From assembly GCA_049519175.1 (NCBI GenBank), contig JBEKQZ010000001.1:107311-171310 (forward strand): a stretch of 64,000 nucleotides of DNA, given 5' to 3'. A model generated the notes under the pieces. That model was not told the origin of the DNA. It worked only from the letters and a program-made list of their open reading frames with translations, and ran no database searches. Source of the stretch: Candidatus Levyibacteriota bacterium (GTDB lineage: Bacteria > Patescibacteriota > Microgenomatia > Levybacterales > UBA12049). Positions 16,105 to 55,526 of the stretch are shown piece by piece; within the stretch, counting starts at the first letter, position 1; the number at the start of each line of letters is the position of its first letter. A program made the translations under genes and the position numbers.

Positions 16105-16144
16105 TGATTATGCTTTCTATTTGGTATTATACTATAAAATAGCC

Positions 16145-40710: not shown

Positions 40711-41137
40711 TCAGGATTTTTTTATCACTAACAGCAAAGAAGAAACACAAACTTTTGCCCAAGACTTTGCCAAAACGCTCAAAGGCGGCGCTTTTTTGGC
40801 ATTTTATGGAGATTTAGGCAGCGGCAAAACCACTTTTATTCAAGGTTTGGCAAAAGGTTTAGGAATACAAAGAAGAATTATTTCGCCAACCTTCATAATT
40901 CTGCGGCATTACAAAATGGATAAAGGAGATTTTTATCACGTTGACCTTTACAGAACCGAAAGTAAACACGATCTCTTAGGGATAGGACTTGAGCAAATCA
41001 TTCAAGACGCAAATAGTATTGTCGCTTTGGAGTGGGCAGAAAAGTTGGGGGAGCTATTGCCAAAACAAAGAATTGATATTCACATGGAGTATCTGGAAGA
41101 TAATAAACGCAAAATTATCATTAAAAAATATGAATAG
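40700..41137 (+). CDS. tsaE: tRNA threonylcarbamoyladenosine biosynthesis ATPase TsaE (YjeE)
   Basis: P-loop GDLGSGKTTF and SPTFII motif. 145 aa. Confidence 0.85.
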   Translation: MMNNQDFFITNSKEETQTFAQDFAKTLKGGAFLAFYGDLGSGKTTFIQGLAKGLGIQRRIISPTFIILRHYKMDKGDFYHVDLYRTESKHDLLGIGLEQIIQDANSIVALEWAEKLGELLPKQRIDIHMEYLEDNKRKIIIKKYE

Positions 41138-41711
41138 ACAGATTGACGAAGCGGTTAAAGTTCTAGACCAAGGTGGCATAGTGATTTTCCCAACCGATAC
41201 AGCTTTTGGAATTGGCTGCCGGGTGGATAATGAAAAAGTGGTTCAAAAGTTATTCAAAATCAGGAACAGACCAGCTTCTCAAGCTGCCCCAATTCTAGTT
41301 AACAGTTTAGAAATGGCTAAAGAGTATGCAGCCGAAGTTCCCGAAGCAGTTATTCAGAATTTAATCAAACCATTTTGGCCGGGCGCTTTGACAATAGTTT
41401 TAAAAGCAAATAAGCAGAAAGTCCCTTTATTAGTCAGAGGCGGTGGCGAGACAGTTGGAATAAGAATGCCAAATCATCCGTTCATTCTTAATGTCATCAA
41501 TAAAGTTGGAGTGCCTGTTTTGGGACCATCGGCCAATTTTCATGGAGAAAAGACGCCTTTTAAATTCAAAGATTTAGATATGAAATTAGTTTCGCTGGTT
41601 GACTATGTTTTAGAGGGAGAATGTTCAATTCAAGAGGCTTCAACGGTGATCGACTGCACAAAACGTAGGTGGGAAATTTTGCGTCAGGGCGCGATACAAG
41701 TTAAGATATAG
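41130..41711 (+). CDS. tsaC: L-threonylcarbamoyladenylate synthase (YrdC/Sua5 family)
   Basis: YrdC fold motifs (GIVIFPTDTAFGIGC, NRPASQAAPILVNS, ETVGIRMPNHP). ATG 41130 is chosen; the longer TTG ORF from 40989 overlaps tsaE. Confidence 0.85.
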   Translation: MNRQIDEAVKVLDQGGIVIFPTDTAFGIGCRVDNEKVVQKLFKIRNRPASQAAPILVNSLEMAKEYAAEVPEAVIQNLIKPFWPGALTIVLKANKQKVPLLVRGGGETVGIRMPNHPFILNVINKVGVPVLGPSANFHGEKTPFKFKDLDMKLVSLVDYVLEGECSIQEASTVIDCTKRRWEILRQGAIQVKI

Positions 41712-41713
41712 GT

Positions 41714-42034
41714 ATGGGCAAAGTTTTAAAGATTGACACCTCCGATAATCAGAAAATAACGATTGAACTTGAATTTAACGGAAAAAAAGAAAAATTGGTT
41801 GAAGACTCAACATTTCTAAGATCCGAAGCGACTTTGCCGGCGATTGATAAGCTACTCAAGCAAAATAATCTAGCTATTAAAGAAGTTGATCAGATTAAAG
41901 TGAGCAAAGGGCCAGGCTCATTTACGGGGTTAAGAGTTGGAGTGGCGATTGCTAATGCGTTAGCGTTTTTATTAAAAATCCCCGTTAATCATAAAAAAGT
42001 TGGCGAATTGGAAGAACCAGTATATAATAAATAG
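41714..42034 (+). CDS. tsaB: truncated TsaB (YeaZ) N-terminal-domain-only protein
   Basis: 106 aa carrying the YeaZ/TsaB signature KGPGSFTGLRVGVAIANALAF. Lacks the C-terminal half of canonical TsaB. Confidence 0.65.
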   Translation: MGKVLKIDTSDNQKITIELEFNGKKEKLVEDSTFLRSEATLPAIDKLLKQNNLAIKEVDQIKVSKGPGSFTGLRVGVAIANALAFLLKIPVNHKKVGELEEPVYNK

Positions 42035-42039: not shown

Positions 42040-42963
42040 ATGATTAATTTTCTGCGCCATCTTTTTCTACCGAGGGAAACAAACAATTACAGGCCGGGAC
42101 TTCTGCACCACAAAATCTTATTCAGCCTAATCTTATTCTTCGTTTCTGCGGGAATTTTGACATCTGTTGTCAGAACCAATTTCCCTGCGGTTTTAGGCCT
42201 ATCGGCGAATATTCCAACACAGCAACTTTTAATTTTAACCAATCAACAAAGACAAGATAATAATCTGCCCGCTCTGACCGATAATTCCGAGCTCGACCAG
42301 GCGGCTGCCAATAAAGCGGCGGATATGCTTAGTAAAAATTATTGGGCACATGATGCGCCGGACGGCACCACTCCGTGGACGTTTATCAAAGCGGCGGGAT
42401 ACAATTATGTTTATGCCGGCGAAAATCTGGCGCGGGGATTTAATAGCGCTTCGGACGTAGTAAACGCCTGGATGAATAGTCCTGAACACAGACAAAATAT
42501 TTTGTCATCCAACTATCAAAATGTTGGCTTTGCGGTAGCCACGGGAAACTTAAGCGGTGAGGATACAATTCTAGTGGTAGAAATGCTTGGCAGTACCAGT
42601 TTGGGTGCTCCCGTTGCTTCGGGCAACAATAATCCTCCGGTCGTTGCTGTTGCCCCAGGGTCTCCGGCGGTCAATAATACTAAAGCGCCTGCTGCTCCGG
42701 CGCAAACACCCATTGCTCAAATTAATAGTTCCAACTTATTGGGAGTTTCTTCAGTTATAAAGCCTCTGATCAATAGTCACACATTTGTCTCTTTGTCGGC
42801 CGGAGTAATTCTCTCTTTATTCATTTTTGTTCTAATTCTAGACATGGTAATAATTGAACGGAAAAAGATTGTCCGCTTTGTTGGTCACAATTTGGACCAT
42901 GTATTGTTCTTGGGAGCGATGTTTGCAATTGTAATAATTCTTTTGAAAGGAGCAATTATTTAA
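42040..42963 (+). CDS. CAP (SCP/PR-1-like) domain protein with N- and C-terminal TM helices
   Basis: CAP motifs (LTNQQRQDNNLPAL, NYWAHDAPDG, GENLARGF, NAWMNSPEHRQNIL). Confidence 0.75.
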   Translation: MINFLRHLFLPRETNNYRPGLLHHKILFSLILFFVSAGILTSVVRTNFPAVLGLSANIPTQQLLILTNQQRQDNNLPALTDNSELDQAAANKAADMLSKNYWAHDAPDGTTPWTFIKAAGYNYVYAGENLARGFNSASDVVNAWMNSPEHRQNILSSNYQNVGFAVATGNLSGEDTILVVEMLGSTSLGAPVASGNNNPPVVAVAPGSPAVNNTKAPAAPAQTPIAQINSSNLLGVSSVIKPLINSHTFVSLSAGVILSLFIFVLILDMVIIERKKIVRFVGHNLDHVLFLGAMFAIVIILLKGAII

Positions 42964-43233
42964 ATGTTCAAAAAGCTGCAGAAACACTTGGGATATTATC
43001 TTTCTCTTTTGGCAATTCTATTGTTGGGACTAGCGCTAATTTTATTAACCAGTCCAAACCTTAAATCGCAAAGTTTAATTATTTCCGCAACCGTATTTTT
43101 CTATATTCTTTGGGGAGTTTTGCACCATCTTATAAATCATGAACTAAGCCTAAGGATTGTGATAGAATATGTTCTCATCGGAGCGTTGGGGCTTTCGATT
43201 CTATTCTTTATGACAGTGGGAGGATTAATATGA
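42964..43233 (+). CDS. small hypothetical membrane protein (89 aa)
   Basis: Three hydrophobic helices. Starts 1 nt after the preceding stop. Confidence 0.4.
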   Translation: MFKKLQKHLGYYLSLLAILLLGLALILLTSPNLKSQSLIISATVFFYILWGVLHHLINHELSLRIVIEYVLIGALGLSILFFMTVGGLI

Positions 43234-43955
43234 AAGGCATAATTTTAGCAGGCGGTAGAGCCACTAGGCTTCGCCCGTTAACAAAGATTACTTCAAAACA
43301 GTTATTACCTATTTATAACAAGCCAATGATTTATTATCCCATTCAGACTCTTGTAAAAGCTGGGATTTCAGACATTTTAATAATTGTTGCACCTGAATAT
43401 TCTGGTCAATTTCTGAATCTGCTTGGTTCAGGCAATGAGTTGGGGGCAAATCTGTCTTACGAAGTTCAAGAGGAGCCTCGAGGGCTTCCCGATGCTTTCA
43501 TTGTCGGCGAAAACTTTATTGAAAAAGATAACGTGGCGATGATTTTAGGAGATAATATTTTTGACCATAATTTTGCGGAAAGCGTTACTTCCTTTAAATC
43601 GGGGGCAAGGATATTTGCTAAACAAGTTCCTGACCCTGAAAGGTCCGGAGTGGTAGAATTTGACCAAGACCATAAAGTTATCTCAATTGTAGAAAAACCG
43701 GAACATCCAAAAAGTAATTATGCGGTTGTCGGATTTTATATTTATGATAACAGGGTAATCGAATATGCCAAAAGTTTAAGACCATCCGCAAGAAATGAAT
43801 TGGAAATTGTTGACCTACACAATAAATATCTTAAAAACGGAGAATTGAAAGTCGATATTATTGAGGGAATGTGGGAAGACGCCGGCACTTTCGACAGCCT
43901 TCTTCGCGTTAACAATCTGATTGCGGAAAGAGTAAAGCAAGGGGGCGTAATATAA
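43230..43955 (+). CDS. rmlA: glucose-1-phosphate thymidylyltransferase-like sugar nucleotidyltransferase
   Basis: MKGIILAGGRATRLRPLTKITSKQLLPIYNKPMIYYPI. 241 aa, shorter than canonical RmlA. Confidence 0.8.
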   Translation: MKGIILAGGRATRLRPLTKITSKQLLPIYNKPMIYYPIQTLVKAGISDILIIVAPEYSGQFLNLLGSGNELGANLSYEVQEEPRGLPDAFIVGENFIEKDNVAMILGDNIFDHNFAESVTSFKSGARIFAKQVPDPERSGVVEFDQDHKVISIVEKPEHPKSNYAVVGFYIYDNRVIEYAKSLRPSARNELEIVDLHNKYLKNGELKVDIIEGMWEDAGTFDSLLRVNNLIAERVKQGGVI

Positions 43956-44966
43956 ATGAAGATTTTAGTTACCGGCGGAGCGGGGTTTATCGGTTCAAAT
44001 TTTATTCTTTATTGGTTGAAAAATCATCCACAGGATTCAATTGTCAATTTAGATAAACTGACTTATGCTGGAAATTTAGAAAATCTAACCAGCGTTCAGG
44101 ATAACCCCAATTATCAATTCATCCAGGGCGATATCTGTGATGCAAAAATTGTCGAAAGCGCAATATCGGGAGTTGATGCCGTTGTGCATTTTGCGGCGGA
44201 AAGCCATGTCGACAGAAGCATTGCGGAGCCAGCTAATTTTGTCAAGACCAATGTTTTGGGAACGCAAGTGCTTTTGGAAGCGTCCCTAAAAAATAAAGTC
44301 AAAAAATTCCACCATATCTCAACGGATGAAGTATATGGAAGCCTTAATCTAGAAGATAAGAGCATATTTAATGAACGAACAGCTTATAATCCCAGAAGTC
44401 CATATTCAGCCAGCAAAGCCGGTTCGGACCATTTGGTTAAAGCCTATTATTATACATATAATTTACCCATTACGATTTCCAACTGTTCCAATAATTTTGG
44501 TCCTTATCAGTTTCCGGAAAAATTAATTGCTCTGGCAATTACTAACCTTTTGGAAGGCAAAAAAGTTCCGGTTTACGGAGATGGACTTTATGTTAGGGAT
44601 TGGTTGTATGTGGAAGATCATTGCCGGGCAATCGATTTAATTTTGGAAAAAGGTAAAGTTGGAGAAACATATTGTGTCGGTGGATTAACGGATGACTTAA
44701 GCAATCTCTCAATTTTGCGGAAGATAATCAGACTGCTTGGAAAAACCGAAGATTCTTTGGAGTATGTCAAAGACAGGCCGGGACACGATAGACGTTATGC
44801 CTTGGATTGGTCGAAAATAAAAAATGAATTAGGTTGGCAGCCTCTGCATGGTTTTGATGAATGGCTTGAAAAAACTGTCCAGTGGTATCAAGAAAACAGA
44901 GAGTGGTGGAAAAATGTTAAAAATGGCGAATACAAGCAATACTACAAGAAACAATACGGCAAATGA
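43956..44966 (+). CDS. rmlB: dTDP-glucose 4,6-dehydratase
   Basis: MKILVTGGAGFIGSNF, ...HISTDEVYG, YSASKAGSDHLV (YxxxK). Confidence 0.9.
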   Translation: MKILVTGGAGFIGSNFILYWLKNHPQDSIVNLDKLTYAGNLENLTSVQDNPNYQFIQGDICDAKIVESAISGVDAVVHFAAESHVDRSIAEPANFVKTNVLGTQVLLEASLKNKVKKFHHISTDEVYGSLNLEDKSIFNERTAYNPRSPYSASKAGSDHLVKAYYYTYNLPITISNCSNNFGPYQFPEKLIALAITNLLEGKKVPVYGDGLYVRDWLYVEDHCRAIDLILEKGKVGETYCVGGLTDDLSNLSILRKIIRLLGKTEDSLEYVKDRPGHDRRYALDWSKIKNELGWQPLHGFDEWLEKTVQWYQENREWWKNVKNGEYKQYYKKQYGK

Positions 44967-45448
44967 TTAAATGCATCTTGGAGAACGGACACGAAACATC
45001 CTTTAGACACGTTACAGTCGGAGCAATAGTTGTCAACGAAAAACAGGAGGTGCTTCTGGTTAAACGGGCGGAAAATATTCATAACGGAGGTAAATATACT
45101 ATTCCCGGAGGATTTCTAGATAGAGATGAAAACTTGGAGCAAGGAGTCTTAAGGGAATTAAAAGAAGAAACAGGCTACAAGGGGAAAATAGAGACGCTTT
45201 TTTGGATTAATGATAGTCCAAATAGACCAAAAGAGGACCGCCAGAATGTAGACTTTATTTTCATTGCTAAAATAATCAGTGGAGGGATGACGTTAAATAA
45301 TGAAGTTTCCGATATTCATTGGTTTACAATGAATAGTTTGCCTAAAGAAGAAGATTTCGCTTTTGACCACCGGGCGATAATTTTACACTATTTTGAATAT
45401 TTAAAGAAACCATTTCCCTTGCCATTAGTAAGTGGGGTAGATTTATGA
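44963..45448 (+). CDS. NUDIX hydrolase
   Basis: Nudix box GGFLDRDENLEQGVLRELKEETG. Confidence 0.8.
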   Translation: MIKCILENGHETSFRHVTVGAIVVNEKQEVLLVKRAENIHNGGKYTIPGGFLDRDENLEQGVLRELKEETGYKGKIETLFWINDSPNRPKEDRQNVDFIFIAKIISGGMTLNNEVSDIHWFTMNSLPKEEDFAFDHRAIILHYFEYLKKPFPLPLVSGVDL

Positions 45449-46365
45449 AAACAAAAATTTTAGTCACAGGGCTAACGGGTTTGGTCGGTTCGAGATTTCC
45501 GGAGCTTTTAAATGATGCTTATGAATTTCAGCCGCTTGGAGTAGATATTCTTGCTAAGAATGCTGTTCTAAATATAATTTCATCCTCAGATGCCCAAATA
45601 GTTCTACATATGGCTGCCAAAACGCACGTTGACGGGTGTGAGCTAGATAAAAATAGGGATAAAGAAATTCTTAAGTTCAGTAATCTTCAAGACCGAGAAA
45701 AAATTTGGATGGAAGAGAAAACCGCTTGGGCAGTAAACGTTTTTGGCACGCAAAATATCGTAGAAGCTTGTCAAAAAACCAATAAGAAAATAATTTATCT
45801 GTCTACCGACTCTGTTTTTGACGGGAAGAAAAGAACTTATTCGGAAGAAGATGAGCCTGCTCCCGTCAATTGGTATGCAAAAACCAAATATGAAGGAGAA
45901 AAACTCATCCAAGCCTCAGGTTTAGATTATATAATCGCCAGAATTGCTTATCCTTATCGGGCGTATTTCGCCAGAAACGATTTCGTGAGAGCCTTAATAG
46001 AAAAATTACAAAAAAGCGAAAAACTAAGTATGGTGACCGATCATATTATGACTCCAACTTTTATTGACGATATCGCTAATGCCTTGGATATTCTCATCAG
46101 ACTTGAGCAAAAAGGCATCTTTCATGTGGTGGGCAGTCAAGCAATCACTCCTTATGAAGCGGCAATAGAAATCGCTCAAACGTTTGATTTCGATGAGTCT
46201 TTAATCTCTAAAACAACCAGAAGAGAATACTTTGCCGGTAAAGCAGCACGGCCCTTTTGTCTTCATCTGAAAAATGCTAAAATTGGTAAATTAGGGATAG
46301 AAATGTCGACTTTTGACAAAGGGATTATTGAAGTTAAAAATCAAAGAGAAAGAATTCAGATATGA
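45445..46365 (+). CDS. rmlD: dTDP-4-dehydrorhamnose reductase-like SDR
   Basis: LVTGLTGLVGS, ...STDSVFDG..., YAKTKYEGE (RmlD-type YxxxK context). Confidence 0.7.
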   Translation: MKTKILVTGLTGLVGSRFPELLNDAYEFQPLGVDILAKNAVLNIISSSDAQIVLHMAAKTHVDGCELDKNRDKEILKFSNLQDREKIWMEEKTAWAVNVFGTQNIVEACQKTNKKIIYLSTDSVFDGKKRTYSEEDEPAPVNWYAKTKYEGEKLIQASGLDYIIARIAYPYRAYFARNDFVRALIEKLQKSEKLSMVTDHIMTPTFIDDIANALDILIRLEQKGIFHVVGSQAITPYEAAIEIAQTFDFDESLISKTTRREYFAGKAARPFCLHLKNAKIGKLGIEMSTFDKGIIEVKNQRERIQI

Positions 46366-47654
46366 CAATTACTTTTGTAGGACACGGATACGTGGGTTTG
46401 GTTTCGGCAGCGGTTTTTGCCGATCTTGGCAATACTGTTTGGGTGATTGGACATACCGAAGAAAAAATAAATAATCTCCAGAAAGGCATAATTCCAATTT
46501 ACGAACCGGGGCTCTCCGAAATCGTGCAAAGAAACGTTAAAGCGAAAAGATTATTGTTCACTTTAGATTACGATGAAGCAATTCAATCTTCAAGTGTGGT
46601 TTTTATTGCCGTTGGGACTCCTTCAAAAGCTAATGGTGATGCCGATTTGTCGGTCATTTACGAAGTGGCGGAAAAAATAGGCAAACATCTCGATGGATAT
46701 ACGGCTGTAGCGACAAAAAGCACTGTCCCGGTTGGCACAAACAAAAAAGTAAGAGAGCTAATTGAAAAAGTAAAACCGGAAAAAGCCACTTTTGATTTGG
46801 CTTCCGTTCCCGAATTTTTAAGAGAAGGGCAGGCGATTTCCGATACCCTGCATCCGGACAGAATAGTTATCGGCACAGATTCGAAGAAAGCCGAAGACAT
46901 TCTTGTTGAGCTGCATGAGTCAATTGACGGCAACTACGTTTTAACTAATATCGAAACTGCGGAAATGATAAAATATGCCGCCAACGCTTTCCTGTCTGTA
47001 AAAATTTCCTTTGCCAACGCGATTGCTTTTTTAAGCGAAGCGACCGGCGCAAACGGGTTGAAAGTTTTGGAAGGAATCGGTTATGACAAAAGAATCGGTA
47101 ATCAATTCCTTTCTCCGGGAGCAGGTTATGGAGGCAGTTGTTTCCCCAAAGACGTCAGAGCTTTAATCCACATTTCCAAACAAAACGGCTATCAATTTAC
47201 GATCTTGGAAGCGGTAGAAGAAGTTAATCGGCAAGCCATGCAGGCAATAGTTACCAAAGCCAAGAAGCTGCTTGACGGAAAAATTGACGGTAAAACAATT
47301 TGCGTTTTAGGTCTTTCGTTTAAGCCGGATACCGATGATATGCGAGATGCGCCTTCGATAACGATTATCAATGCGCTTAAAGAAGCGGGAGCTAAAATAA
47401 AAGCGTTTGACCCAATTGCCATTGAAAAAGCCAAGCAAAAAATTACGGGAATTGAATTTTGCGAAGACGCTTACGAAGCAGCCAAAGATACAGAACTTTT
47501 AATTATTCTAACCGAATGGAATGAGTTCAAGCAGCTTAATTTAAGCAAGATTAAAACCTTAATGAGAACTCCGGTTATTCTGGACGGAAGAAATATTTAT
47601 AACCCGCCGGAAGTTAAAAGATTAGGTTTTGTTTATCAGGGTGTTGGTAGATAA
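46362..47654 (+). CDS. ugd: UDP-glucose 6-dehydrogenase
   Basis: NAD-binding ITFVGHGYVGLVSAAVFADLG and catalytic Cys region (GYGGSCFPKDV). Confidence 0.9.
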   Translation: MTITFVGHGYVGLVSAAVFADLGNTVWVIGHTEEKINNLQKGIIPIYEPGLSEIVQRNVKAKRLLFTLDYDEAIQSSSVVFIAVGTPSKANGDADLSVIYEVAEKIGKHLDGYTAVATKSTVPVGTNKKVRELIEKVKPEKATFDLASVPEFLREGQAISDTLHPDRIVIGTDSKKAEDILVELHESIDGNYVLTNIETAEMIKYAANAFLSVKISFANAIAFLSEATGANGLKVLEGIGYDKRIGNQFLSPGAGYGGSCFPKDVRALIHISKQNGYQFTILEAVEEVNRQAMQAIVTKAKKLLDGKIDGKTICVLGLSFKPDTDDMRDAPSITIINALKEAGAKIKAFDPIAIEKAKQKITGIEFCEDAYEAAKDTELLIILTEWNEFKQLNLSKIKTLMRTPVILDGRNIYNPPEVKRLGFVYQGVGR

Positions 47655-47656
47655 TT

Positions 47657-48619
47657 ATGGCAAAGAAAATATTAATTACAGGCGCTTCCGGTTTTGTCGG
47701 CAGTCACCTCGCCGATTATCTCTCTTTAGAGCCAAATAACCATCTTTTTGGAACAACTTTTTCCAAAGGCGACTCCAGAAATTTAGACAAGAGCAAAGAC
47801 AAACTAGAGCTGTTAGAAGTTGATTTAAGCAAAGACGAAGCAGTTTTTTCACTCATTGAAGAAATAAAACCGAATGTTATTTATCATTTGGCGGCGTTTA
47901 CCTCGGCAGCCGATAGCTTTTCTTCTCCAAAAGAAACTATTCTAAATAACATTGCTTGTCAGATAAACATTCTCGAAGCCATGCGAAAAAGTAATCTCAC
48001 TGAAACGGAAACACTAGTTGTTTCTTCAGGTGAAGTTTACGGGAGCGTTATGAAAGAAGATCTTCCGATTGATGAAGCAACTTCTTTAAATCCGACTAAT
48101 CCTTATGCGGTTTCAAAACTTGCGCAAGATTTTTTAGGCAGGCAGTATTTTTTGTCTTATGGCTTAAAAACTATTCGTGTAAGACCCTTTAATCACGTTG
48201 GCCCACGTCAGTCACCGAATTTTGTTGTTTCGGCTTTTGCCAAAAAAATTGCGGAAATAGAAAAAGGGAAAAGGGAACCAATTTTGTCGGTTGGTAATTT
48301 AGAAGCAAAACGGGATTTTACCGACGTCAGAGATGTAATTAGAGCTTATGGCCTATTGATGGAAAAGGGTGAAATTGGAGAGGTTTACAATATTGGTTCG
48401 GGCGTTTCGCACAAAATAGCGGAAATTCTGGATCAATTACTTTCCTTAACCAAAGTTAAAATTACGGTAGAGGTTGATAAGTCATTGTTTAGGCCAATCG
48501 ATGACCCAGATTTAGTTTGTGACCCGACGAAATTGAAAAAGCTGACGGGTTGGGAACCGGAAATTCCGCTGGCGAAGACTTTAGAAGACACACTGGACTA
48601 TTGGCGAAATATTCTTTAA
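47657..48619 (+). CDS. rmd: GDP-4-keto-6-deoxy-D-mannose reductase-like NAD-dependent epimerase/dehydratase
   Basis: ILITGASGFVGSHL, ...YAVSKLAQDFL...RPFNHVGPRQSPNFV. Immediately upstream of gmd. Confidence 0.65.
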   Translation: MAKKILITGASGFVGSHLADYLSLEPNNHLFGTTFSKGDSRNLDKSKDKLELLEVDLSKDEAVFSLIEEIKPNVIYHLAAFTSAADSFSSPKETILNNIACQINILEAMRKSNLTETETLVVSSGEVYGSVMKEDLPIDEATSLNPTNPYAVSKLAQDFLGRQYFLSYGLKTIRVRPFNHVGPRQSPNFVVSAFAKKIAEIEKGKREPILSVGNLEAKRDFTDVRDVIRAYGLLMEKGEIGEVYNIGSGVSHKIAEILDQLLSLTKVKITVEVDKSLFRPIDDPDLVCDPTKLKKLTGWEPEIPLAKTLEDTLDYWRNIL

Positions 48620-48632
48620 AATGAGTTAGTAA

Positions 48633-49598
48633 ATGAAAACAGCTTTAATCACCGGCATTACCGGACAAGACGGACCATATTTGGCAGAATTTCTGCTTTC
48701 CAAAGGTTATAAAGTGGCCGGAACCGTGCGTCGGCTTTCCACTCCAAACATGGAAAATATTAAAGATATTGCCGATAAGCTTGAGCTTTTCTCAGCGGAT
48801 TTGCTTGACCAAAGTTCCTTAACTGATGCTATCAGGAAATCAGAGCCTGACGAAATCTACAATCTGGCTGCGCAATCCTTTGTAAAAGCTTCTTGGGATC
48901 AGCCGGTGCTAACCGGAGAGTTTACGGCGCTCGGCGTAACCAGAGTTTTGGAAGCAATCCGCACGGTTAATTCTAAAATTAAATTTTATCAAGCTTCCAG
49001 TTCGGAAATGTTTGGCAAAGTGACCGAAACTCCGCAAAAAGAAACTACCAGGTTTCATCCACGTAGCCCCTATGGCGTTGCTAAAGTTTACGGTCATTAC
49101 ATCACGGTTAATTACAGAGAAAGTTACGATATGTTTGCCTGCTCGGGAATTCTTTTTAACCACGAGTCTCCAAGGAGAGGCATAGAATTTGTAACCAGAA
49201 AAATTACTAATGGGGTTGCCAGAATAAAATTAGGCAAGCAAGCTAAATTGGAGCTTGGTAGTCTTGAGCCGAAAAGAGACTGGGGATACTCGGGCGATTA
49301 TGTCGAGGCGATGTGGCTGATGCTACAACAAGAAAAACCCGATGATTATGTTATCGCCACCGGAGAAAACCACAGTGTCAAAGAGTTTGTTGAAGAAGCG
49401 TTTAAAGTAGCAGACATTCCGGATTGGCAAAAATATGTCGTTGCCAACGAGTTTGAATATATGCGTCCGGCAGAAGTTGATTACCTCATTGGCGATGCAA
49501 GCAAAGCGCAAAAGGTGCTTGGTTGGAAACCGAAAACGAGTTTTAAAGAATTGGTTAAGCTAATGGTTGAAGCCGACCTCGAGAGAGAAAAAAAATAA
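48633..49598 (+). CDS. gmd: GDP-mannose 4,6-dehydratase
   Basis: [49 protein letters not shown]. Confidence 0.9.
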
Positions 49599-49599
49599 T

Positions 49600-50550
49600 A
49601 TGCAGACCGTATTAGTCGCCGGCGGAGCAGGTTTTATAGGCTCGCATTTATGCAAAAGTCTACTTGCCAAAAACTACAAAGTTATTTGTATTGATAATTT
49701 GGTCACCGGGGATAAAAGTAACATTGCGCCACTTTTAAATAACGAAAACTTCAGTTTTTTAGAAAAAGACATCACCAAACCTTTAGAAAATGTTCAAGCG
49801 GATTTTATTTTCCACTTAGCCAGTCCGGCCTCACCGAATAAAAAATCTCCCAAAAGTTACATTAATCTACCACTGGAAACTTTACTGGCAAATTCTTTGG
49901 GAACATATTATCTTTTAGAGTTGGCAAAAAAAGTAGGGGCAAAATTTCTGTATGCGTCAACCTCCGAAGTTTACGGTGATCCAAAAGTTTCTCCCCAGAC
50001 AGAAGATTATTTCGGCAATGTCAACCCAAACGGAGTGCGTTCAGTTTATGATGAATCCAAACGGTTTGGTGAAGCAATCACCATGAGTTATGTCAGAAGC
50101 GCCAATCTTGATGCCAGGATTATCCGAATTTTTAACACTTATGGTCCCTCGATGCAAAAAGATGACGGAAGAGTAATCTCAAATTTTGCGGTTCAGGCGC
50201 TAGCAAATCAGCCTCTAACCGTTTACGGAGACGGAAAACAAACCAGAAGTATTTGTTTTGTTGATGATATGGTTTTGGGTATTGAACAAGCGCTGTTTAC
50301 ACAAAATACCAAGGGAGAAGTAATTAATCTAGGCAATCCTAACGAAAAAACAATTTTAGAGTTGGCAGAAATTATTAAAAGGATTGCGAAGTCATCCTCG
50401 CAAGTTTCTTTCGAGCCGTTGCCGGAAGATGACCCAAAAATAAGAAAACCGGATATTTCCAAGGCAAAAAAACTTTTAGACTGGGAACCAAAAGTGAATA
50501 TTGAAGAAGGGCTGACTAAAACGATACAATATTTTAAAGAGATAGTATGA
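49600..50550 (+). CDS. uxs: UDP-glucuronate decarboxylase (UDP-xylose synthase)
   Basis: VLVAGGAGFIGSHLCKSLL, NLVTGDKSNI, YDESKRFGE. ATG 49600 is chosen; the ORF is open from 49567 inside gmd. Confidence 0.8.
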   Translation: MQTVLVAGGAGFIGSHLCKSLLAKNYKVICIDNLVTGDKSNIAPLLNNENFSFLEKDITKPLENVQADFIFHLASPASPNKKSPKSYINLPLETLLANSLGTYYLLELAKKVGAKFLYASTSEVYGDPKVSPQTEDYFGNVNPNGVRSVYDESKRFGEAITMSYVRSANLDARIIRIFNTYGPSMQKDDGRVISNFAVQALANQPLTVYGDGKQTRSICFVDDMVLGIEQALFTQNTKGEVINLGNPNEKTILELAEIIKRIAKSSSQVSFEPLPEDDPKIRKPDISKAKKLLDWEPKVNIEEGLTKTIQYFKEIV

Positions 50551-51677
50551 AAGCAATAGTTATAATTCCAACCTATAACGAAAAAGGGAATATCGAACGT
50601 ATTATTCCGGCGGTTGAAGAGGTCTTTAAAGAAGTCAAGAACTACGAAACCGGAATTTTAATTGTCGATGATGGTTCTCCTGATGGCACTGGCGAGATAG
50701 TCAAAGGTTTGATGAAGCAATATGATAATTTACACCTGTTGGAAGGTCAAAAAAACGGTTTGGGAGCAGCATATCTGCGTGGTATGACTTACGCAGTTAA
50801 TGAGTTGCACGCAGATGTGATGTTTGAAATGGACGCGGACTTTTTCCACGACCCAAAAAAGATTCCGGATTTTTTGCAGAAAATTGATGAGGGGAACGAT
50901 TTTGTTATCGGGACAAGATATAGCGCGGGCGGTTCAATTCCTGCAAATTGGGGATTACATCGGAAAATAATGTCGGTCTGGGGAAATTTGTTAATCAGGA
51001 CGATATTAATGCGGTTTGATATTCACGATTGGACCGGCGGATATAGAGCCATTAAAAAAGAAGTTTTTCTTAAAGAAAAAGAAAAGTTAACAGCTTTTTC
51101 CGGTTACACATTTCAAGTTGGTTCTTTGCTAAATGCCGTGCATGACGGATTTAAAGTGGCCGAAGTGCCTTTTCATGCGACAGACAGAACAATGGGAAAG
51201 TCCAAAATTCCCGGAATAAAAACGATTATTCAGACTTTATATTTTGTTATCACAGCCAGAATCAAAGAATTAGTCTTTGGTCCATTTGGAAAATTCTTGG
51301 TCGTTGGAGGAACAGGTTTTGTAATACAAGCGATAATCCTAAGGATTATGGTTGGAATTTTTAATATTGATCCTACAATTTCTAATCTTACAGGAGCAGT
51401 AGTTGCGATATTCTCAAATTATAATCTAAATAACCATTGGACATTTAAAACCGAAAAAATTAGCGGTTTTGGTCAGTATTTATGGAAGCTGCTAAACTTT
51501 TATGCCACTTCCGCAATTGGCGTAATTATTATTCAGACAGGAATAATTTTTTTAGGAGATACATTGTTCGGGAAAAAGTTTTACTTCCTTTATTTTATAA
51601 TCGGGACAGGATTTTTGCTGATTTATAATTTTACAGTTTATAGATTAATAATTTGGCGCAAGAAACCCTCTCAATGA
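50547..51677 (+). CDS. GT2 polyprenyl-phosphate glycosyltransferase (Dpm1/ArnC/GtrB-like) fused to a C-terminal GtrA-like membrane domain
   Basis: IVIIPTYNEKGNIERII, ILIVDDGSPDGT, DADFFHDP. C-terminal 4-TM region (FLVVGGTGFVIQAIILRIMV...). Confidence 0.8.
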   Translation: MKAIVIIPTYNEKGNIERIIPAVEEVFKEVKNYETGILIVDDGSPDGTGEIVKGLMKQYDNLHLLEGQKNGLGAAYLRGMTYAVNELHADVMFEMDADFFHDPKKIPDFLQKIDEGNDFVIGTRYSAGGSIPANWGLHRKIMSVWGNLLIRTILMRFDIHDWTGGYRAIKKEVFLKEKEKLTAFSGYTFQVGSLLNAVHDGFKVAEVPFHATDRTMGKSKIPGIKTIIQTLYFVITARIKELVFGPFGKFLVVGGTGFVIQAIILRIMVGIFNIDPTISNLTGAVVAIFSNYNLNNHWTFKTEKISGFGQYLWKLLNFYATSAIGVIIIQTGIIFLGDTLFGKKFYFLYFIIGTGFLLIYNFTVYRLIIWRKKPSQ

Positions 51678-53251
51678 AGAAAAAATTTCTATTCTCATTT
51701 TTTAATTTTCAATTTTTTGCCATGGTCATTATTTTGGCGATCGCTGCATTCATGAGGCTTTATAAAATTCAAGATTATATGACTTTCTTGGGCGATGAAG
51801 GCCGAGACGTTTTGGTTGTCTATAATATTTTACACGGACACTTGACGCTTCTAGGTCCAACCTCTTCGGTTGGGGGATTTTTCTTAGGTCCAATTTATTA
51901 TTATTTTATGGCGCCATTTTTGTGGCTGTTCAATTACAGTCCGGTTGGGCCGGCGGTAATGGTGGCGCTTTTTGGCATCGCCACCGTTTGGCTTGTTTAC
52001 ATCGTCGGTAAAGATTTTTTCAATGTCAAAGTTGGATTAATGGCTGCTCTTATTTATGCTATTTCTCCATTGGTAATTGTCTATTCAAGGTCTTCCTGGA
52101 ATCCAAATCCGATGCCGTTTTTTTCTCTTTTAACTCTATATTGTATCTATCAAGCTCTAAAAAAGAATAGTTTGAAGCTGTTTTTTGTTGCCGGTATTTT
52201 GTTTGGGATTGCCATGCAATTACATTACCTCTCAATTTTTTTAGGGATGGTAATAATCATCTACACTTTTCTGGCATTTCTTTATAAAGAGAAAAACTTC
52301 AAGGTCTGGACAAAATTACTGAAAGAATACCTCTCAATTTTCTTAGGATTTGTCATTGGCTGGTCACCGTTTTTGGCTTTTGAAGTCCGGCACGGGTTTT
52401 TAGATTTCAAAAACATTTTTAATTTTGTGCTATTTTCTGGCAAGACCGGAGCAAACTCCAATTACTTTGCAATTGTTTACGATGTGTTTTTCCGTGTTTT
52501 TGGCAGGTTAGTCTTTTATTTCCCAACGCCTGACCTGCAATATCTTTACAAGCCCTGGCTTTTGCCCTGGGAAGTTTTTGTTCTGCTATTTGCAATTTTT
52601 GCCTGTGGTACTATCTTCTTCAAACTTATTAAAGCGTATAAAGAGAAAAGCCAAGACTTCAGTAAATATTTATTGCTGATAGTTTGGTTAGTCGTTGGCA
52701 TCCTGCTTTTCGGATTTTATAAAAAGGACATTTATGATTATTATTTTGCTTTCATGTTTCCCTTGCCATTTTTACTGGTCGCGCAAAGTTTGGATTTTCT
52801 AAAAAAAATAAAATTTCTGAAAGTGGGAATTGTTCTTTCGCTAATTTTATTGGTTATAATAGTTGCTTTAAACCTTGATGGAATTCCATTCCAATATCCG
52901 CCCAACCGACAATTAAATCAGATGCGCTCCATTGCGGCATTTGTGATGACGCAAACTAACGCAAAGCCATTTAACTTTGCTTTAGTGGCAGCCGGAAATT
53001 CAGATTACGCTTACAGATATTTCTTTACGCTTTGGAATCATCCGCCGGTAACAATTGAAGATCCGGCGCATGACCCGCTGCGAAAAACCGTCACGAACCA
53101 ACTTTTCGTCGTTTGCGAAAGCCCGCTGCCTTGCGAGCCCTTAGGCAATTCATTATGGGAGATAGCGGGGTTTGGTCGGGCAGATATTGCCAACCATTGG
53201 AACGTCTCCGTCGTCGAAGTCTACAAGCTTATTCACTACAAAGGAAAATAG
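51674..53251 (+). CDS. ArnT/PMT-family (GT39/GT83-like) polyprenyl-phosphate-sugar-dependent membrane glycosyltransferase
   Basis: Polytopic, about 12 TM helices. The first loop has the family's DE-type motif (FLGDEGRDVLVVYNIL). ATG at 51674 (MKKKFLF); the ORF is open from 51653. Confidence 0.7.
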   Translation: MKKKFLFSFFNFQFFAMVIILAIAAFMRLYKIQDYMTFLGDEGRDVLVVYNILHGHLTLLGPTSSVGGFFLGPIYYYFMAPFLWLFNYSPVGPAVMVALFGIATVWLVYIVGKDFFNVKVGLMAALIYAISPLVIVYSRSSWNPNPMPFFSLLTLYCIYQALKKNSLKLFFVAGILFGIAMQLHYLSIFLGMVIIIYTFLAFLYKEKNFKVWTKLLKEYLSIFLGFVIGWSPFLAFEVRHGFLDFKNIFNFVLFSGKTGANSNYFAIVYDVFFRVFGRLVFYFPTPDLQYLYKPWLLPWEVFVLLFAIFACGTIFFKLIKAYKEKSQDFSKYLLLIVWLVVGILLFGFYKKDIYDYYFAFMFPLPFLLVAQSLDFLKKIKFLKVGIVLSLILLVIIVALNLDGIPFQYPPNRQLNQMRSIAAFVMTQTNAKPFNFALVAAGNSDYAYRYFFTLWNHPPVTIEDPAHDPLRKTVTNQLFVVCESPLPCEPLGNSLWEIAGFGRADIANHWNVSVVEVYKLIHYKGK

Positions 53252-53281: not shown

Positions 53282-53316
53282 AAAAAACCCCTTCCAAAAA
53301 GGTGGGGGTTTTTTAT
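53282..53316. terminator. bidirectional rho-independent terminator between convergent genes
   Basis: AAAAAACCCCTTCC-AAAAA-GGTGGGGGTTTTTT: an A-tract, stem and T-tract. Confidence 0.5.
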
Positions 53317-53542: not shown

Positions 53543-53833
53543 TTAGTAACTAATTCCGGGTATTATTAAAACGTGATTTCTAAGTAGGGTAAAAAGAATT
53601 ATTTGAAAAATAAAAATGCCTAAAGTTAAAAGCGCGGTTTTACGAAGGTCTTTGACAAGATATGGATATTGATTTAAAGCCACTATTTTTGGTGCATTTT
53701 GTGTCAACATTGGGGAAATAATCAGTGGCTGAGTTTTGACCGTAAGAGGTGTTTGACCAGTAAAAGTGTGGCTAAAATTGTGGCGTGCATCGGCTAAAAT
53801 TTTCTGTTCCCGGGTTTTTCTCTTCTTAGCCAT
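53543..53833 (-). CDS. hypothetical protein (96 aa; basic N-terminus and one C-terminal TM helix)
   Basis: ORF upstream of and co-directional with the zinc-ribbon gene. Promoter-like TTGACA-18-TAATCT on the minus strand 10 nt upstream. Confidence 0.4.
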   Translation of the reverse strand: MAKKRKTREQKILADARHNFSHTFTGQTPLTVKTQPLIISPMLTQNAPKIVALNQYPYLVKDLRKTALLTLGIFIFQIILFTLLRNHVLIIPGISY

Positions 53834-53895: not shown

Positions 53896-54360
53896 ATGCC
53901 AACCAATCTCCTGTTTCTAATTCTTGCAATAATTCTTGTTTGGCTAGCTTCCCTTTCTGTTTTCTTCTGGAGAATTTTACAGCATTACAATAAGTTGACC
54001 AAGGGAGTCAGCGAAAAAAGTTTGCGAACGGTTTTGGAAGATCTGCTTAAAGATATGGATGTTAATAAAAAGGATATTGACTATCTAAAGGAGTATTCTG
54101 CTAGAATAGAAAAGGACGGACTTTTACATATCCAAAAGGTAGGCTTAATCAGATTCAATCCTTTTAAAGATACTGGTGGAGACCAAAGTTTTATTTTATC
54201 CCTAGTTGACGGAAAAGACACAGGCGTAGTTATTTCCGGTCTCTATTCAAGGTCCGGAACCAGATGGTATGCCAAAAGAGTCGTAAGCGGGAAAGGTGTC
54301 GATTACGAGTTATCCGAAGAAGAAAAGAAATCACTAAAAGAAACAAGCGCTAATTTATGA
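53896..54360 (+). CDS. DUF4446-like protein (N-terminal TM anchor)
   Basis: 154 aa; TM helix, then conserved-looking IRFNPFKDTGGDQSF...GVVISGLYSRSGTRWYAKRV and an acidic tail. Confidence 0.55.
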   Translation: MPTNLLFLILAIILVWLASLSVFFWRILQHYNKLTKGVSEKSLRTVLEDLLKDMDVNKKDIDYLKEYSARIEKDGLLHIQKVGLIRFNPFKDTGGDQSFILSLVDGKDTGVVISGLYSRSGTRWYAKRVVSGKGVDYELSEEEKKSLKETSANL

Positions 54361-55526
54361 AAAAAAATACAATCGTAATAATCATAACCGCAGTCGTTCT
54401 GTATTTATTGGCCACTTCGGTGTCTTATTTCCTTTTTATAAAAGTGTCGCCGCAAATCGTCAGTTCTCCTTTGCCTGCTCCAACCGCCGGCGTAAATGGA
54501 GCCTTGGTTTTTAATAATAATCTTCCTAAAACCGAAGCCTGCCCAATTAATGGAGTTTTATATTCCAAACAGCAAGAACAATGGTGGCAACAACATCGAC
54601 CCTTGGGAGTAATGATTGAAAATAGCGTTGATGCCAGACCGCAATCGGGGCTTTCTGGAGCAGACACTATTTATGAAGCGGTCGCTGAAGGTGGCATCAC
54701 CCGGTTCTTAGCTATCTATTATTGTCAGGATGCGGGCGAGCTTGGTCCGGTTAGGTCGGCCAGAACCTATTACGTTGATTTCATGTCGGAGTATGGGGAT
54801 TCACCTCTCTATGCTCATGTCGGCGGTGCAAATCAACCGGGGCCCGCAGATGCCCTTACGCAGCTCACAGATTACGGCTGGACTGCTTATAATGACTTAA
54901 ACCAGTTCTCTATCGGTTTTCCGACATTTTGGAGAGATTACGGCCGTTTGCCAAACGTTGCCACCGAGCATACTATGTATTCTTCGGTCGATAAATTGTT
55001 GGATTATGCAAAAACCAGCCGGGGACTGACAAACGTTGATAAACAGGGAGTTTCATGGGACAAAGATTTTGTTCCTTACACCTTTACCGACGATGCTCCG
55101 GCTTCGCAAAGACCGACCAGCCAGTCGATCCATTTGGAATTTTGGCAATCGGCCGGGAGCGATTACTTTGTTGACTGGACATATAATCCAAAGACGAATC
55201 TCTATGCAAGAGCCAACGGCGGAAAACCGCATATCGATAAAAATACCGGTAAACAATTAGCTGCCAAAAACGTAGTTGTTCTGGAGATGGTAGAAGATAA
55301 TGCCAATGACGGATACGTTGATAACGATCATCTTTTATTCGAAGATAAGGGAACCGGCACAGCAGTTGTCTTTAAAGATGGCAAACGAATCAACGGCACT
55401 TGGGAAAAAGATACCAGGACTTCCCGAACGATTATCACCGACGCAAGCGGAAAACAAATTCAATTTGACAGGGGACTGATTTGGTTCGAAATTCTGCCCA
55501 CGGATGGTGTATTAACTGTAAAGTAA
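54357..55526 (+). CDS. DUF3048 (YerB-like) domain protein, membrane-anchored
   Basis: N-terminal TM; RPLGVMIENSVDARPQSGLSGADTIYEAVAEGGITRFLAIY... core and the C-terminal DUF3048-C-like region. Overlaps the upstream gene (ATGA). Confidence 0.6.
   Translation: MKKNTIVIIITAVVLYLLATSVSYFLFIKVSPQIVSSPLPAPTAGVNGALVFNNNLPKTEACPINGVLYSKQQEQWWQQHRPLGVMIENSVDARPQSGLSGADTIYEAVAEGGITRFLAIYYCQDAGELGPVRSARTYYVDFMSEYGDSPLYAHVGGANQPGPADALTQLTDYGWTAYNDLNQFSIGFPTFWRDYGRLPNVATEHTMYSSVDKLLDYAKTSRGLTNVDKQGVSWDKDFVPYTFTDDAPASQRPTSQSIHLEFWQSAGSDYFVDWTYNPKTNLYARANGGKPHIDKNTGKQLAAKNVVVLEMVEDNANDGYVDNDHLLFEDKGTGTAVVFKDGKRINGTWEKDTRTSRTIITDASGKQIQFDRGLIWFEILPTDGVLTVK

Follow-up and report, generated by a model that had tools for sequence, protein, structure and literature searches.

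A conserved Levybacteria operon closes with a DPMS-like GT2::GtrA fusion and a GT-C-fold transferase, a probable lipid-phosphate-sugar relay

An operon of sugar-nucleotide genes in the tiny genome of a Candidatus Levybacteria bacterium (Patescibacteria/CPR) ends in two genes for membrane proteins, which raises the question of what these two proteins do together and with which sugar. The first-pass annotation of the 64 kb window, the whole stretch of DNA that was analysed, had read positions 46362-53251 as a module that loads a UDP-pentose on a lipid carrier, flips it and attaches it to an extracytoplasmic acceptor. Strong profile and PDB matches confirm the gene identities and positions given there. 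The operon (43230-53251, + strand) and the site behind it comprise, in order:

43230..43955, +, rmlA-like sugar-1-phosphate nucleotidylyltransferase, short form, 241 aa (PF00483, 211 bits)
43956..44966, +, rmlB, dTDP-glucose 4,6-dehydratase (TIGR01181, 488.7 bits, over the 365 cutoff)
44963..45448, +, NUDIX hydrolase, at a position that could have been expected to hold rmlC (PF00293, 84 bits)
45445..46365, +, rmlD-like SDR reductase with a ~20 aa insertion (PF04321, 185 bits in two stretches)
46362..47654, +, ugd, UDP-glucose 6-dehydrogenase (three UDPG_MGDP_dh domains; TIGR03026, 463 bits)
47657..48619, +, rmd-like GDP-4-keto-6-deoxy-mannose reductase (PDB 2pk3, 7.6e-78, full length)
48633..49598, +, gmd, GDP-mannose 4,6-dehydratase (TIGR01472, 432.4 bits, over the 415 cutoff)
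49600..50550, +, uxs, UDP-glucuronate decarboxylase (UDP-xylose synthase) (human UXS1 2b69, 1e-97)
50547..51677, +, predicted polyprenyl-phosphate glycosyltransferase (GT2, DPMS-like) fused to a GtrA-like 4-TM domain, 376 aa (PF00535 and PF04138)
51674..53251, +, GT-C-fold membrane glycosyltransferase with ~12 TM helices and a C-terminal extracytoplasmic domain (PF13231 PMT_2)
53291..53316, +, terminator-like hairpin and T-run (consensus scan), 40 nt past the GT-C stop codon

All ORFs are packed closely or overlap. The hairpin is the probable operon end, on weak evidence, since the consensus scan counts no more terminator-like sites in the region than in shuffles. The same gene order is found again in ~80 species-level genomes, with the operon at the equivalent chromosomal position in related genomes, and the GC content of the 43.2-53.3 kb stretch (0.38-0.41) matches the remainder of the window. 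What had been called an envelope-glycan island is hence core chromosome, a syntenic envelope-sugar operon conserved in Levybacteria. Elsewhere in the window, an undecaprenyl-pyrophosphate phosphatase (BacA) gene is located at 33659-34432, and a PT-rich protein of the kind already noticed nearby, which is membrane-anchored, is encoded at 40033-40710, ~3 kb upstream of the operon.

Envelope glycans would draw on a dTDP-6-deoxyhexose, UDP-GlcA, UDP-Xyl and GDP-D-rhamnose made by the eight genes upstream of the closing pair, and the transferases that consume most of these sugars would have to be encoded outside the operon. The start of the rmlA-like gene overlaps an 89-aa membrane ORF by 4 nt. Its product (TIGR01207 rmlA, 300 bits) and that of the rmlD-like gene (TIGR01214, 172.7 bits; PDB 3sc6, 2.9e-29) stay under the model cutoffs of 360 and 224, respectively. 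The NUDIX gene is present in only some of the syntenic loci, and no rmlC-like sequence was found in the whole 64 kb window, in line with the earlier reading. The ugd product reaches 541 bits against the TuaD model, and the structure matched by the rmd product is Aneurinibacillus Rmd, a GDP-6-deoxy-D-lyxo-4-hexulose reductase. As gmd is kept in every syntenic locus, GDP-mannose must be available; rmd is kept in all except one. For uxs, the mechanical ORF starts at TTG 49567 (49567-50550), while homologs of 316-318 aa point to ATG 49600 as the probable true start. The product shares 57% identity with human UXS1 and keeps the TSE and YxxxK motifs, while its match to ArnA is only ~1e-22.

The first of the two closing genes had been described as a Dpm1/ArnC-type GT2 fused to a GtrA-like 4-TM domain, and this description holds. 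The protein scores 101 bits against PF00535 and 56 bits against PF04138 (GtrA_DPMS_TM). Its nearest solved structure is the dolichyl-phosphate-mannose synthase of Pyrococcus furiosus (PfDPMS, 5mlz; 3.5e-35, residues 1-364); the two are 33% identical along their whole length, and this includes the four GtrA-like membrane helices. The AF2 model (pLDDT 86.8) has four C-terminal TM helices, and Foldseek places it with PfDPMS (E 2e-22, TM-score 0.63/0.67). Among the solved relatives, ArnC and GtrB rank behind PfDPMS. The metal-, donor- and Dol-P-binding residues of PfDPMS have been assigned; among them, the Gly-Leu pair stacks on guanine, His94 binds mannose O3 and Lys178 contacts mannose O4/O6 (PMC5526996). 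The equivalents of PfDPMS Glu12, Asp39, Gly68-Leu69, the DAD motif, His94, Arg117, Arg131, Ser135, Arg202 and Lys208 are invariant in 76-110 family members, as E12, D41/D42, G71-L72, D96-A-D98, H101, R124, R139, S143, R214 and K220. The Arg202...Lys208 acceptor loop, on whose presence the earlier assignment had been made to depend, is thus intact, and the alignment supports a predicted Dpm1/ArnC-type polyprenyl-phosphate glycosyltransferase. The histidine of the DADxxH motif corresponds to Asn in ArnC (DADLQN) and Asp in GtrB (DADLQD; PMC12690121). Gln93 corresponds to Phe/Gln/Ser and Lys178 to Thr/Ile, and conservation is ambiguous for the polar-pocket and gate residues to which flipping has been ascribed in PfDPMS, with the HMMER and MAFFT alignments two positions apart. 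The family has two subtypes, distinguished at positions 186-190 of the window's protein: the Q-type, with GY[T/I]FQ, to which that protein belongs, and the K-type, with [R]FAYK and DADFQHP.

The second protein had been assigned to the ArnT/PMT-family transferases, an assignment supported only at the level of the GT-C fold and the PMT_2 model (63 bits, cutoff 26). No sequence match to solved ArnT or PMT structures was obtained, profile search included, a MIR domain is absent, and the fold fits oligosaccharyltransferases about equally well as PMT and ArnT. The AF2 model has a pLDDT of 81.5 and a pTM of 0.83. Just past TM1 lies an acidic loop (DYMTFLGDEGRD), in which D34, D41 and D45 are invariant and E42 is found in at least 90% of the sequences; residues 40-71 are the most conserved stretch yet have the lowest model confidence (pLDDT <50). 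In the C-terminal domain C481 and C487 are invariant. The mechanical ORF starts at TTG 51653, but given homolog lengths of 519-530 aa the start is most likely ATG 51674. With the start moved to this position, the overlap already noted between the last two genes is an ATGA shared with the GT2::GtrA stop codon.

Together, the two proteins probably form a lipid-phosphate-sugar relay, a judgement that leaves the identity of the sugar aside and is well supported because the GT2::GtrA protein is DPMS-like over its full length and keeps every catalytic and acceptor-loop residue. The BacA gene in the window also speaks for it. It is improbable that the two are neighbours rather than partners, with the GT-C protein acting like an oligosaccharyltransferase or polymer ligase on an Und-PP-linked glycan and GT2::GtrA serving other enzymes. 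CPR genomes do pack unrelated genes closely, the K-type GT2::GtrA never adjoins the GT-C gene in distant relatives, and in most of the distant relatives the partner of GT-C is another GT2, a short one of its own, so that the Levybacteria pairing could be secondary. Against this, the genes are coupled through the ATGA overlap and adjacent in all ~80 Levybacteria loci in which both are visible, and GT-C directly follows a Q-type GT2 in every Levybacteria locus as well as in 8 distant loci. The sole significant family match of GT-C is PMT_2, whose model was built on users of lipid-monophosphate-sugars, and distant GT-C homologs carry a Pren-P-type GT2 domain fused at the N-terminus, which argues for a donor made by a Pren-P GT2.

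As to the sugar, mannose or another GDP-hexose comes close to an even prospect, and GDP-mannose itself, giving Und-P-Man, is a tentative choice. By bit score, the synthase lies far nearer to DPMS (125) than to ArnC (55) or GtrB (30), although three solved relatives are a poor guide to specificity, and it carries the DADxxH motif. The originally proposed UDP-pentose is unproven as a donor and somewhat doubtful: here UDP-xylose (or a UDP-4-keto-pentose) from Ugd and UXS would be loaded and flipped by GT2::GtrA, and GT-C would attach xylose, a plausible but unproven cargo, to either a wall polymer or a protein at the surface, along the lines of Ugd, ArnA, ArnC, ArnE/F and ArnT. The genuine UXS homolog is encoded by a gene whose stop codon overlaps the GT2::GtrA start. 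In 76 of 86 informative loci, uxs directly precedes the Q-type GT2 and is translationally coupled to it, which favours xylose; 7 of these are distant metagenomic loci where ugd-rmd-uxs-GT2-GT-C persists while other operon parts are rearranged. For the K-type, which has no GT-C neighbour, just 2 of 18 non-edge loci show uxs upstream. ArnC, moreover, is proof that the enzyme family can use a UDP-pentose. Besides the bit scores, however, the kept guanine-stacking Gly-Leu and mannose-O3-binding His speak against xylose (PMC5526996), as does the clean absence of uxs from 8 of 78 Levybacteria loci (~10%), where ugd, gmd, GT2 and GT-C are retained with the GT2 active-site residues unaltered. With the genes of two unrelated pathways intermixed in ugd-rmd-gmd-uxs, a gene's neighbours reveal little about its pathway, and no description of a lipid-phosphate-xylose donor was found in the literature searched.

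In the 8 loci without uxs, gmd lies directly upstream of GT2. This, and the near-universal retention of gmd and rmd, would fit a pair that installs D-rhamnose outside the membrane from Und-P-D-Rha, made from the GDP-D-rhamnose of these two enzymes. The DPMS residues that read the base and O2/O3 are retained while Lys178, which reads mannose O4/O6, is Thr/Ile (PMC5526996). Several distant Type A loci (those with the arrangement uxs, GT2::GtrA, GT-C) have gmd in a non-adjacent position. To our knowledge eukaryotic DPM1 enzymes also have no equivalent of this Lys, hence the substitution does not discriminate donors; nor are we aware of any lipid-phosphate-D-rhamnose donor described before, which counts against this distinctly unlikely reading. 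A sugar other than those of GDP-mannose, UDP-xylose and GDP-D-rhamnose is rather unlikely.

The closest known counterpart of the synthase is the type-III DPMS of Pyrococcus furiosus (5mlz, 5mm0, 5mm1, 9ep0), likewise a single chain of GT2 GT-A domain, two interface helices and GtrA-like 4-TM domain. Strict type-III DPMS have been found only in hyperthermophilic archaea (PMC12992685), whereas the Levybacteria host is a mesophilic CPR bacterium and its carrier presumably undecaprenyl rather than dolichyl phosphate. In the Arn pathway (Ugd, ArnA, ArnB, ArnC, ArnD, ArnE/F, ArnT) the decarboxylase is ArnA and not a UXS; the Levybacteria operon has no aminotransferase, formyltransferase or deformylase, its GT2 is nearer to DPMS than to ArnC and its GT-C has no sequence match to ArnT. 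CPR bacteria, as far as we know, have no lipid A. The actinobacterial Ppm1/Pmt (GT39) and Caldicellulosiruptor bescii GT39 systems (PMC6151902) also combine a polyprenyl-phosphate-sugar synthase with a PMT-type GT-C, and Pro/Thr-rich secreted or anchored acceptors are typical of them, as the PT-rich anchored protein upstream of the operon recalls. The Levybacteria GT-C, however, matches PF13231 only and not PF02366, has no match to yeast Pmt structures, and its C-terminal domain is family-specific. In the pentofuranose three-component systems (GT136), a GT-C also adds a pentose outside from an Und-P-linked donor, but these start from PRPP with a UbiA-type phosphoribosyltransferase, a phosphatase and a MATE flippase, and involve no nucleotide pentose and no GT2 (PMC11127046).

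In the proposed relay, the membrane-seated GT2::GtrA protein would load polyprenyl, presumably undecaprenyl, phosphate with a single monosaccharide taken from a nucleotide sugar, through its cytoplasmic catalytic domain, with a DAD-metal site, an Arg/Arg/Ser phosphate site and a gating loop as in dolichyl-phosphate-mannose synthase. The product would then reach the outer membrane face, plausibly via the protein's own GtrA-like four-helix domain; in an archaeal homolog, Dol-P-Man sits head-down in the TM domain and flipping has been proposed in a 2026 crystallographic paper (PMC12992685). GT-C would use it as the donor to glycosylate an extracytoplasmic acceptor, possibly by protein O-glycosylation, with the acidic loop-1 motif GDEGRD serving in catalysis and the predicted disulfide-bearing C-terminal domain in acceptor binding. 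The same division of labour characterizes the classical three-component systems GtrB-GtrA-GtrC, CsbB-GtcA-YfhO and GtlA-GtcA-GtlB (reviewed in PMC8035078), in which a GT-A makes a C55-P-monosaccharide for a GtrA-type element to flip and for a GT-C to transfer outside, the GT-A and GT-C genes being adjacent. In Levybacteria, unlike in these systems, synthase and GtrA element are a single protein, the GT-C falls into PMT_2 instead of the YfhO or GtrC families, and the host is a CPR bacterium. The enzyme pair that closes this operon would thus be a two-protein form of three-component extracytoplasmic glycosylation, a further example of an already known type of system.

On the plus strand between 43230 and 53251, ten ORFs overlap or are tightly packed. 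Profile and structure-sequence searches bore out the genes and coordinates listed in the first-pass annotation:

43230-43955, plus strand: rmlA-like nucleotidylyltransferase, first gene of the operon
plus strand: rmlB (TIGR01181, 489 bits, over its cutoff)
44963-45448, plus strand: NUDIX hydrolase
plus strand: rmlD-like reductase with a ~20-aa insertion, under the TIGR01214 cutoff
46362-47654, plus strand: ugd
plus strand: Rmd-type reductase (PDB 2pk3, 7.6e-78)
plus strand: gmd (TIGR01472, 432 bits; cutoff 415)
plus strand: uxs, UXS-type UDP-glucuronate decarboxylase (human UXS1, 1e-97; ArnA, ~1e-22)
50547-51677, plus strand: GT2 with a C-terminal GtrA/DPMS TM domain (GT2::GtrA)
to 53251, plus strand: PMT_2 membrane protein (GT-C)

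The stronger match to human UXS1 than to ArnA points to a decarboxylase of the UXS rather than the ArnA type, in agreement with the original reading, and the catalytic T-S-E and YxxxK motifs are conserved as ASTSEVYGDP and YDESK. The most likely starts of uxs and of the GT-C gene are ATG 49600 and ATG 51674, the latter because the GT-C homologs are 519-530 aa long. ATG 51674 forms an ATGA overlap with the stop codon of the GT2 gene, and an exact-sequence lookup of the GT-C protein with a TTG start returned no record, consistent with the shorter ATG start.

The closest solved relative of GT2::GtrA is the dolichyl-phosphate-mannose synthase of Pyrococcus furiosus (PfDPMS, PDB 5mlz), with an alignment that spans residues 1-364 and takes in the TM region (3.5e-35, 125 bits, vs. 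55 bits for ArnC and 30 bits for GtrB). The AF2 model (pLDDT 86.8) shows a GT-A domain and two amphipathic interface helices (137-154 and 224-244), the latter followed by four TM helices. Foldseek placed PfDPMS at the top (E 2e-22, TM 0.63/0.67, 378 columns), followed by ArnC and GtrB, all of which share the GT-A fold of the GT2 domain. The fusion of this catalytic domain to a GtrA-like 4-TM domain is apparent from PF04138 (56 bits) and from the full-length alignment to 5mlz.

The metal/diphosphate site D96-A-D98 is found in 101 of 110 sequences, the other nine varying only in the middle Ala. Residues R124, R139, S143, R214, G217, S219 and K220 do not vary among Levybacteria and hardly vary in distant loci. 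Residue roles were taken from PMC5526996, according to which Arg117, Arg131 and Ser135 of PfDPMS bind the lipid phosphate, Arg202...Lys208 form the gating acceptor loop, Gly68-Leu69 provide guanine contact and stacking, and His94 contacts mannose O3. The equivalents of Glu12, Asp38/39, Gly68-Leu69 and His94 are invariant in the window GT2 family. Its sixth DADxxH residue is His, as in DPMS, a position taken by Asn in ArnC and Asp in GtrB (PMC12690121). With catalytic and acceptor-loop residues kept, the protein does not resemble a cytoplasmic polysaccharide synthase devoid of a Dpm1-type acceptor loop. Its assignment as a polyprenyl-phosphate glycosyltransferase, predicted to form a polyprenyl-phosphate-monosaccharide, is well supported by these comparisons.

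Like type-III DPMS, the window protein joins a catalytic domain to a GtrA-like 4-TM domain. Unlike strict type-III DPMS, which use GDP-mannose as donor and dolichyl phosphate as acceptor and occur only in hyperthermophilic archaea (PMC12992685), it comes from a Candidatus Levybacteria bacterium, and it thus reads as a bacterial variation on the type-III theme. A deposited protein with 100% identity to the GT2 is listed under Candidatus Levyibacteriota, on a contig of 580 kb. In PfDPMS, Dol-P-Man is bound head-down in the GtrA-like TM domain, and self-flipping of the product has been proposed; the polar pocket of type-III TM domains is formed by Asn248, Asn277 and Arg341 (or Asn), with Phe338 as the gate (PMC12992685). 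Asn277 corresponds to the invariant N291 of the window family, and Asn248 to Q261, a position held by Gln or Asn across the family. For Phe338 and Arg341 the alignments disagree, HMMER pairing them with L359 and N361 and MAFFT with F362 and Y365.

The GT-C protein matches PF13231 (PMT_2) over residues 80-235 with 63.4 bits against a cutoff of 26.1. Searches of all PDB chains with the single sequence and with a 111-sequence profile gave nothing relevant, and hence its family placement rests on Pfam and fold. The AF2 model (pLDDT 81.5, pTM 0.83) has the GT-C_A membrane fold, in which ~12 TM helices precede a small alpha/beta domain at the C-terminus. The conserved acidic residues of the first extracytoplasmic loop lie in DYMTFLGDEGRD, right after TM1, where D34, D41 and D45 are invariant and E42 nearly so, as expected for the putative catalytic acidic motif of loop 1. 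The C-terminal domain has two invariant cysteines, which suggest that it is extracytoplasmic. Membership in the ArnT/PMT families, as first proposed, was not supported beyond the PF13231 match and the fold. The window protein matches neither PF02366 nor MIR and lacks the sequence similarity to ArnT that marks GT83, and Pmt chains were not matched by phmmer or the 111-sequence profile at E up to 10; a weak PF02366 match occurs in a few homologs. Lacking PF02366 and MIR, it is neither a canonical GT39 PMT nor a GT83 ArnT. The GT-C belongs to a large family, with 9712 representatives at E < 1e-3 and 545 at < 1e-30.

Several distant members of the GT-C family are GT2::GT-C fusions of ~710-740 aa. 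Their GT2 part keeps the Pren-P-type loop PRTAGKS but shares no more than 28% identity with the window GT2. The fusions support a functional coupling of GT2 and GT-C and are Rosetta-stone evidence that this GT-C family would take its donor from a polyprenyl-phosphate GT2. They were found in other Patescibacteria (L085 7257-12327, and also P0266, P0267, P0276, P0282, P0308, P0320 and P0346). At least two PMT_2 paralogs and more short GT2 genes come after each fusion, making up large multi-GT-C glycosylation clusters, of which no description was seen in the papers searched.

The wider context was surveyed in 80 more distant metagenomic loci, which show two arrangements. Type A has the order ugd - rmd - [gmd] - uxs - GT2::GtrA - GT-C; in type B, GT2::GtrA lies 1-3 kb ahead of a GT-C and its GT2, which is either short or fused, with more GT-C paralogs and GT2s behind. 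The GT2::GtrA proteins fall into a Q-type with GY[T/I]FQ at window positions 186-190, which includes all Levybacteria proteins, and a K-type with [R]FAYK and DADFQHP. Of 86 informative Q-type cases, 76 have uxs as the next gene upstream, and the GT-C comes next downstream in all but two; the K-type has uxs upstream in 2 of 18 non-edge loci (21 in all) and never adjoins a GT-C. We considered the split as a sign of neofunctionalisation and rejected this, as the two types never occur together in one locus; they may instead be orthologs that have diverged rather than paralogs with distinct functions.

A Pren-P GT-A enzyme, a GtrA-type element and a GT-C are co-encoded in the window, and the system belongs to the known three-component class of extracytoplasmic glycosylation. 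The mechanistic frame of the first-pass annotation is a synthase of lipid-phosphate-monosaccharide that contains its own GtrA-like domain and works ahead of a GT-C transferase. As a prediction, it is well supported by homology and fold, by conserved catalytic residues, by synteny and domain fusions, and by the translational coupling of the two genes.

In a genome scan, 276 species-level genomes proved to carry the GT-C. The best 80 of these, almost all labelled Levybacteria or Patescibacteria, were used to map the window proteins onto their loci. Throughout these loci, CAP - 89-aa TM protein - rmlA - rmlB - [NUDIX] - rmlD is followed by ugd - rmd - gmd - uxs - GT2 - GT-C - DUF4446 - DUF3048. 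Within this set, uxs is cleanly missing in eight loci, where gmd directly precedes the GT2; four loci lack rmlD and one lacks rmd, and only some of the Levybacteria loci have the NUDIX gene. The GT-C proteins are 60-95% identical among Levybacteria, and the genomes of the lineage are very small (longest contigs ~0.58-0.94 Mb; one complete chromosome of 762 kb). The locus had been described as an envelope-glycan island. A genomic island is at odds with a GC content like that of the rest of the window and with the strict synteny of the flanking tsaB/CAP and DUF4446/DUF3048/secDF genes, and was rejected; the operon is core and syntenic.

Identity to the window is mosaic along the operon. In loci L001-L084, rmlA falls into two classes (~50% vs. 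69-84%), and the identity of GT-C is not tracked by that of ugd or GT2: locus L001 has 81% for GT-C, 63% for ugd and 72% for GT2, and locus L006 has 82%, 90% and 92%, respectively. These patterns suggest recombination or allele replacement inside the operon among Levybacteria.

The earlier assignment of a pentose (xylose or a 4-keto-pentose) as the transferred sugar is unproven, given a DPMS-like synthase, a uxs gene that is dispensable at the locus and a gene order that mixes pathways. UDP-xylose is favoured by the coupling of uxs to the GT2, which persists in distant lineages, and by analogy to the Arn pathway, where ArnC shows that the family can use a UDP-pentose. However, the synthase resembles DPMS in every residue that reads base and sugar, and natural loss of uxs from the locus, in ~10% of genomes, leaves the active-site columns of the GT2 unchanged. 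The operon order alternates between the UDP-GlcA/Xyl and GDP-Rha pathways, so that gene neighbourhood does not track pathway here, and GDP-mannose is certainly at hand, since gmd requires it. GDP-mannose is, by a narrow margin, our tentative first choice, followed in falling order by UDP-xylose, which we regard as doubtful, by some other sugar, which is unlikely, and by GDP-D-rhamnose, which is quite improbable.

For the Q-type of Levybacteria and related Microgenomates, a more far-reaching proposal is conceivable, if rather unlikely: an enzyme descended from DPM1 but now using UDP-xylose would make and flip undecaprenyl-phosphate-xylose, from which the PMT_2-type GT-C would add xylose to a wall polymer or to PT-rich proteins of the surface. 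If true, a single protein would both make and flip a lipid-linked xylopyranose donor of which we found no description, and xylosylation would be conserved, possibly essential, in CPR envelopes (genomes ~0.6-0.8 Mb). The literature searched contained nothing relevant on lipid-phosphate-xylose or on glycosylation in Levybacteria or CPR.

On the minus strand, 33659-34432 encodes a BacA/UppP undecaprenyl-pyrophosphate phosphatase (PF02673, 240 bits). BacA/UppP regenerates the Und-P carrier, as GT2::GtrA would need, and its presence in the window is consistent with Und-P as the carrier. As for the acceptor, a 225-aa protein (40033-40710) with no Pfam match carries a PTPTPTPAPTDTPTPMPTQTPTPKP linker, where P/T/S make up 73% of 30 aa, and is anchored in the membrane at its C-terminus; it is a plausible candidate substrate for O-glycosylation. 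The N-terminal region of a solute-binding protein (16085-17683) is also Pro-rich. Protein O-glycosylation is plausible because of this nearby anchored PT-rich protein and the precedent of GT39 enzymes, which glycosylate Pro/Thr linkers in Actinobacteria and Caldicellulosiruptor (PMC6151902). By analogy with Gram-positive multi-component systems, a wall polymer would be equally possible (PMC8035078). The sequence identifies no acceptor; the protein target, one of the two kinds of acceptor suggested at first, is unproven. A Pfam scan of 50 window ORFs (covering ~8.8-62.3 kb of the 64 kb, minus a few short ORFs) found no other glycosyltransferase, and most nucleotide sugars of the operon must therefore serve transferases outside the scanned region.

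The window contains rmlA, rmlB and an rmlD-like gene (43230-46365) yet no rmlC, none being detected in its 64 kb by tblastn with a CPR RmlC-like protein. With no 3,5-epimerase, the rmlD-like reductase may make a dTDP-6-deoxy-D-hexose and not L-rhamnose. In some relatives, a small RmlC-like cupin gene separates rmlA from rmlB (L075 3290-3514, L034 1753-2052, L067 1983-2285), and L085 encodes a 170-aa dTDP_sugar_isom protein (2947-3459). The NUDIX gene, which may encode a nucleotide-sugar hydrolase regulating sugar pools, lies between rmlB and rmlD in the window (44963-45448) and between rmlA and rmlB elsewhere (comparison loci L003 2208-2750 and L081 2954-3424); in distant loci a NUDIX gene comes after a gmd-GT2 pair.

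Directly before rmlA, 42040-43233 encodes a membrane protein with a CAP domain (cysteine-rich secretory protein family) and an 89-aa two-TM protein (weak DUF5656), whose ORF shares 4 nt with the start of rmlA. Both genes keep their place beside the operon across Levybacteria and may thus be part of its transcript. Further upstream, a fragment-like TsaD-family gene of 106 aa (41714-42034) adjoins a Sua5/YrdC gene (40989-41711), while the window has its full-length TsaD gene at another site (12724-13737). The short gene is kept at 106 aa in relatives and is probably a TsaB-like partner, not a pseudogene. The DUF4446 and DUF3048 genes (53896-55526) are found 3' of the operon in nearly all relatives; the gap of ~0.6 kb between operon and DUF4446 holds a small antisense ORF (53543-53833).

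The result so far amounts to a sound annotation of function rather than a discovery, and the system is noteworthy mainly as a bacterial relative of archaeal type-III DPMS and for its strong conservation in reduced CPR genomes. With its two genes, it is a compact system in which lipid-linked monosaccharide transfer can be tested, and its synthase is a bacterial relative of the archaeal enzymes on which to test the proposed synthase-plus-flippase idea. Should the donor prove to be xylose, it would be a new lipid-linked sugar for bacterial glycobiology. CPR/Patescibacteria are uncultured, ultra-small and mostly epibiotic, and to our knowledge their surface chemistry is essentially unknown. The retention of a ten-gene sugar operon in very small genomes suggests that the envelope glycan made from it matters for the lifestyle of Levybacteria.
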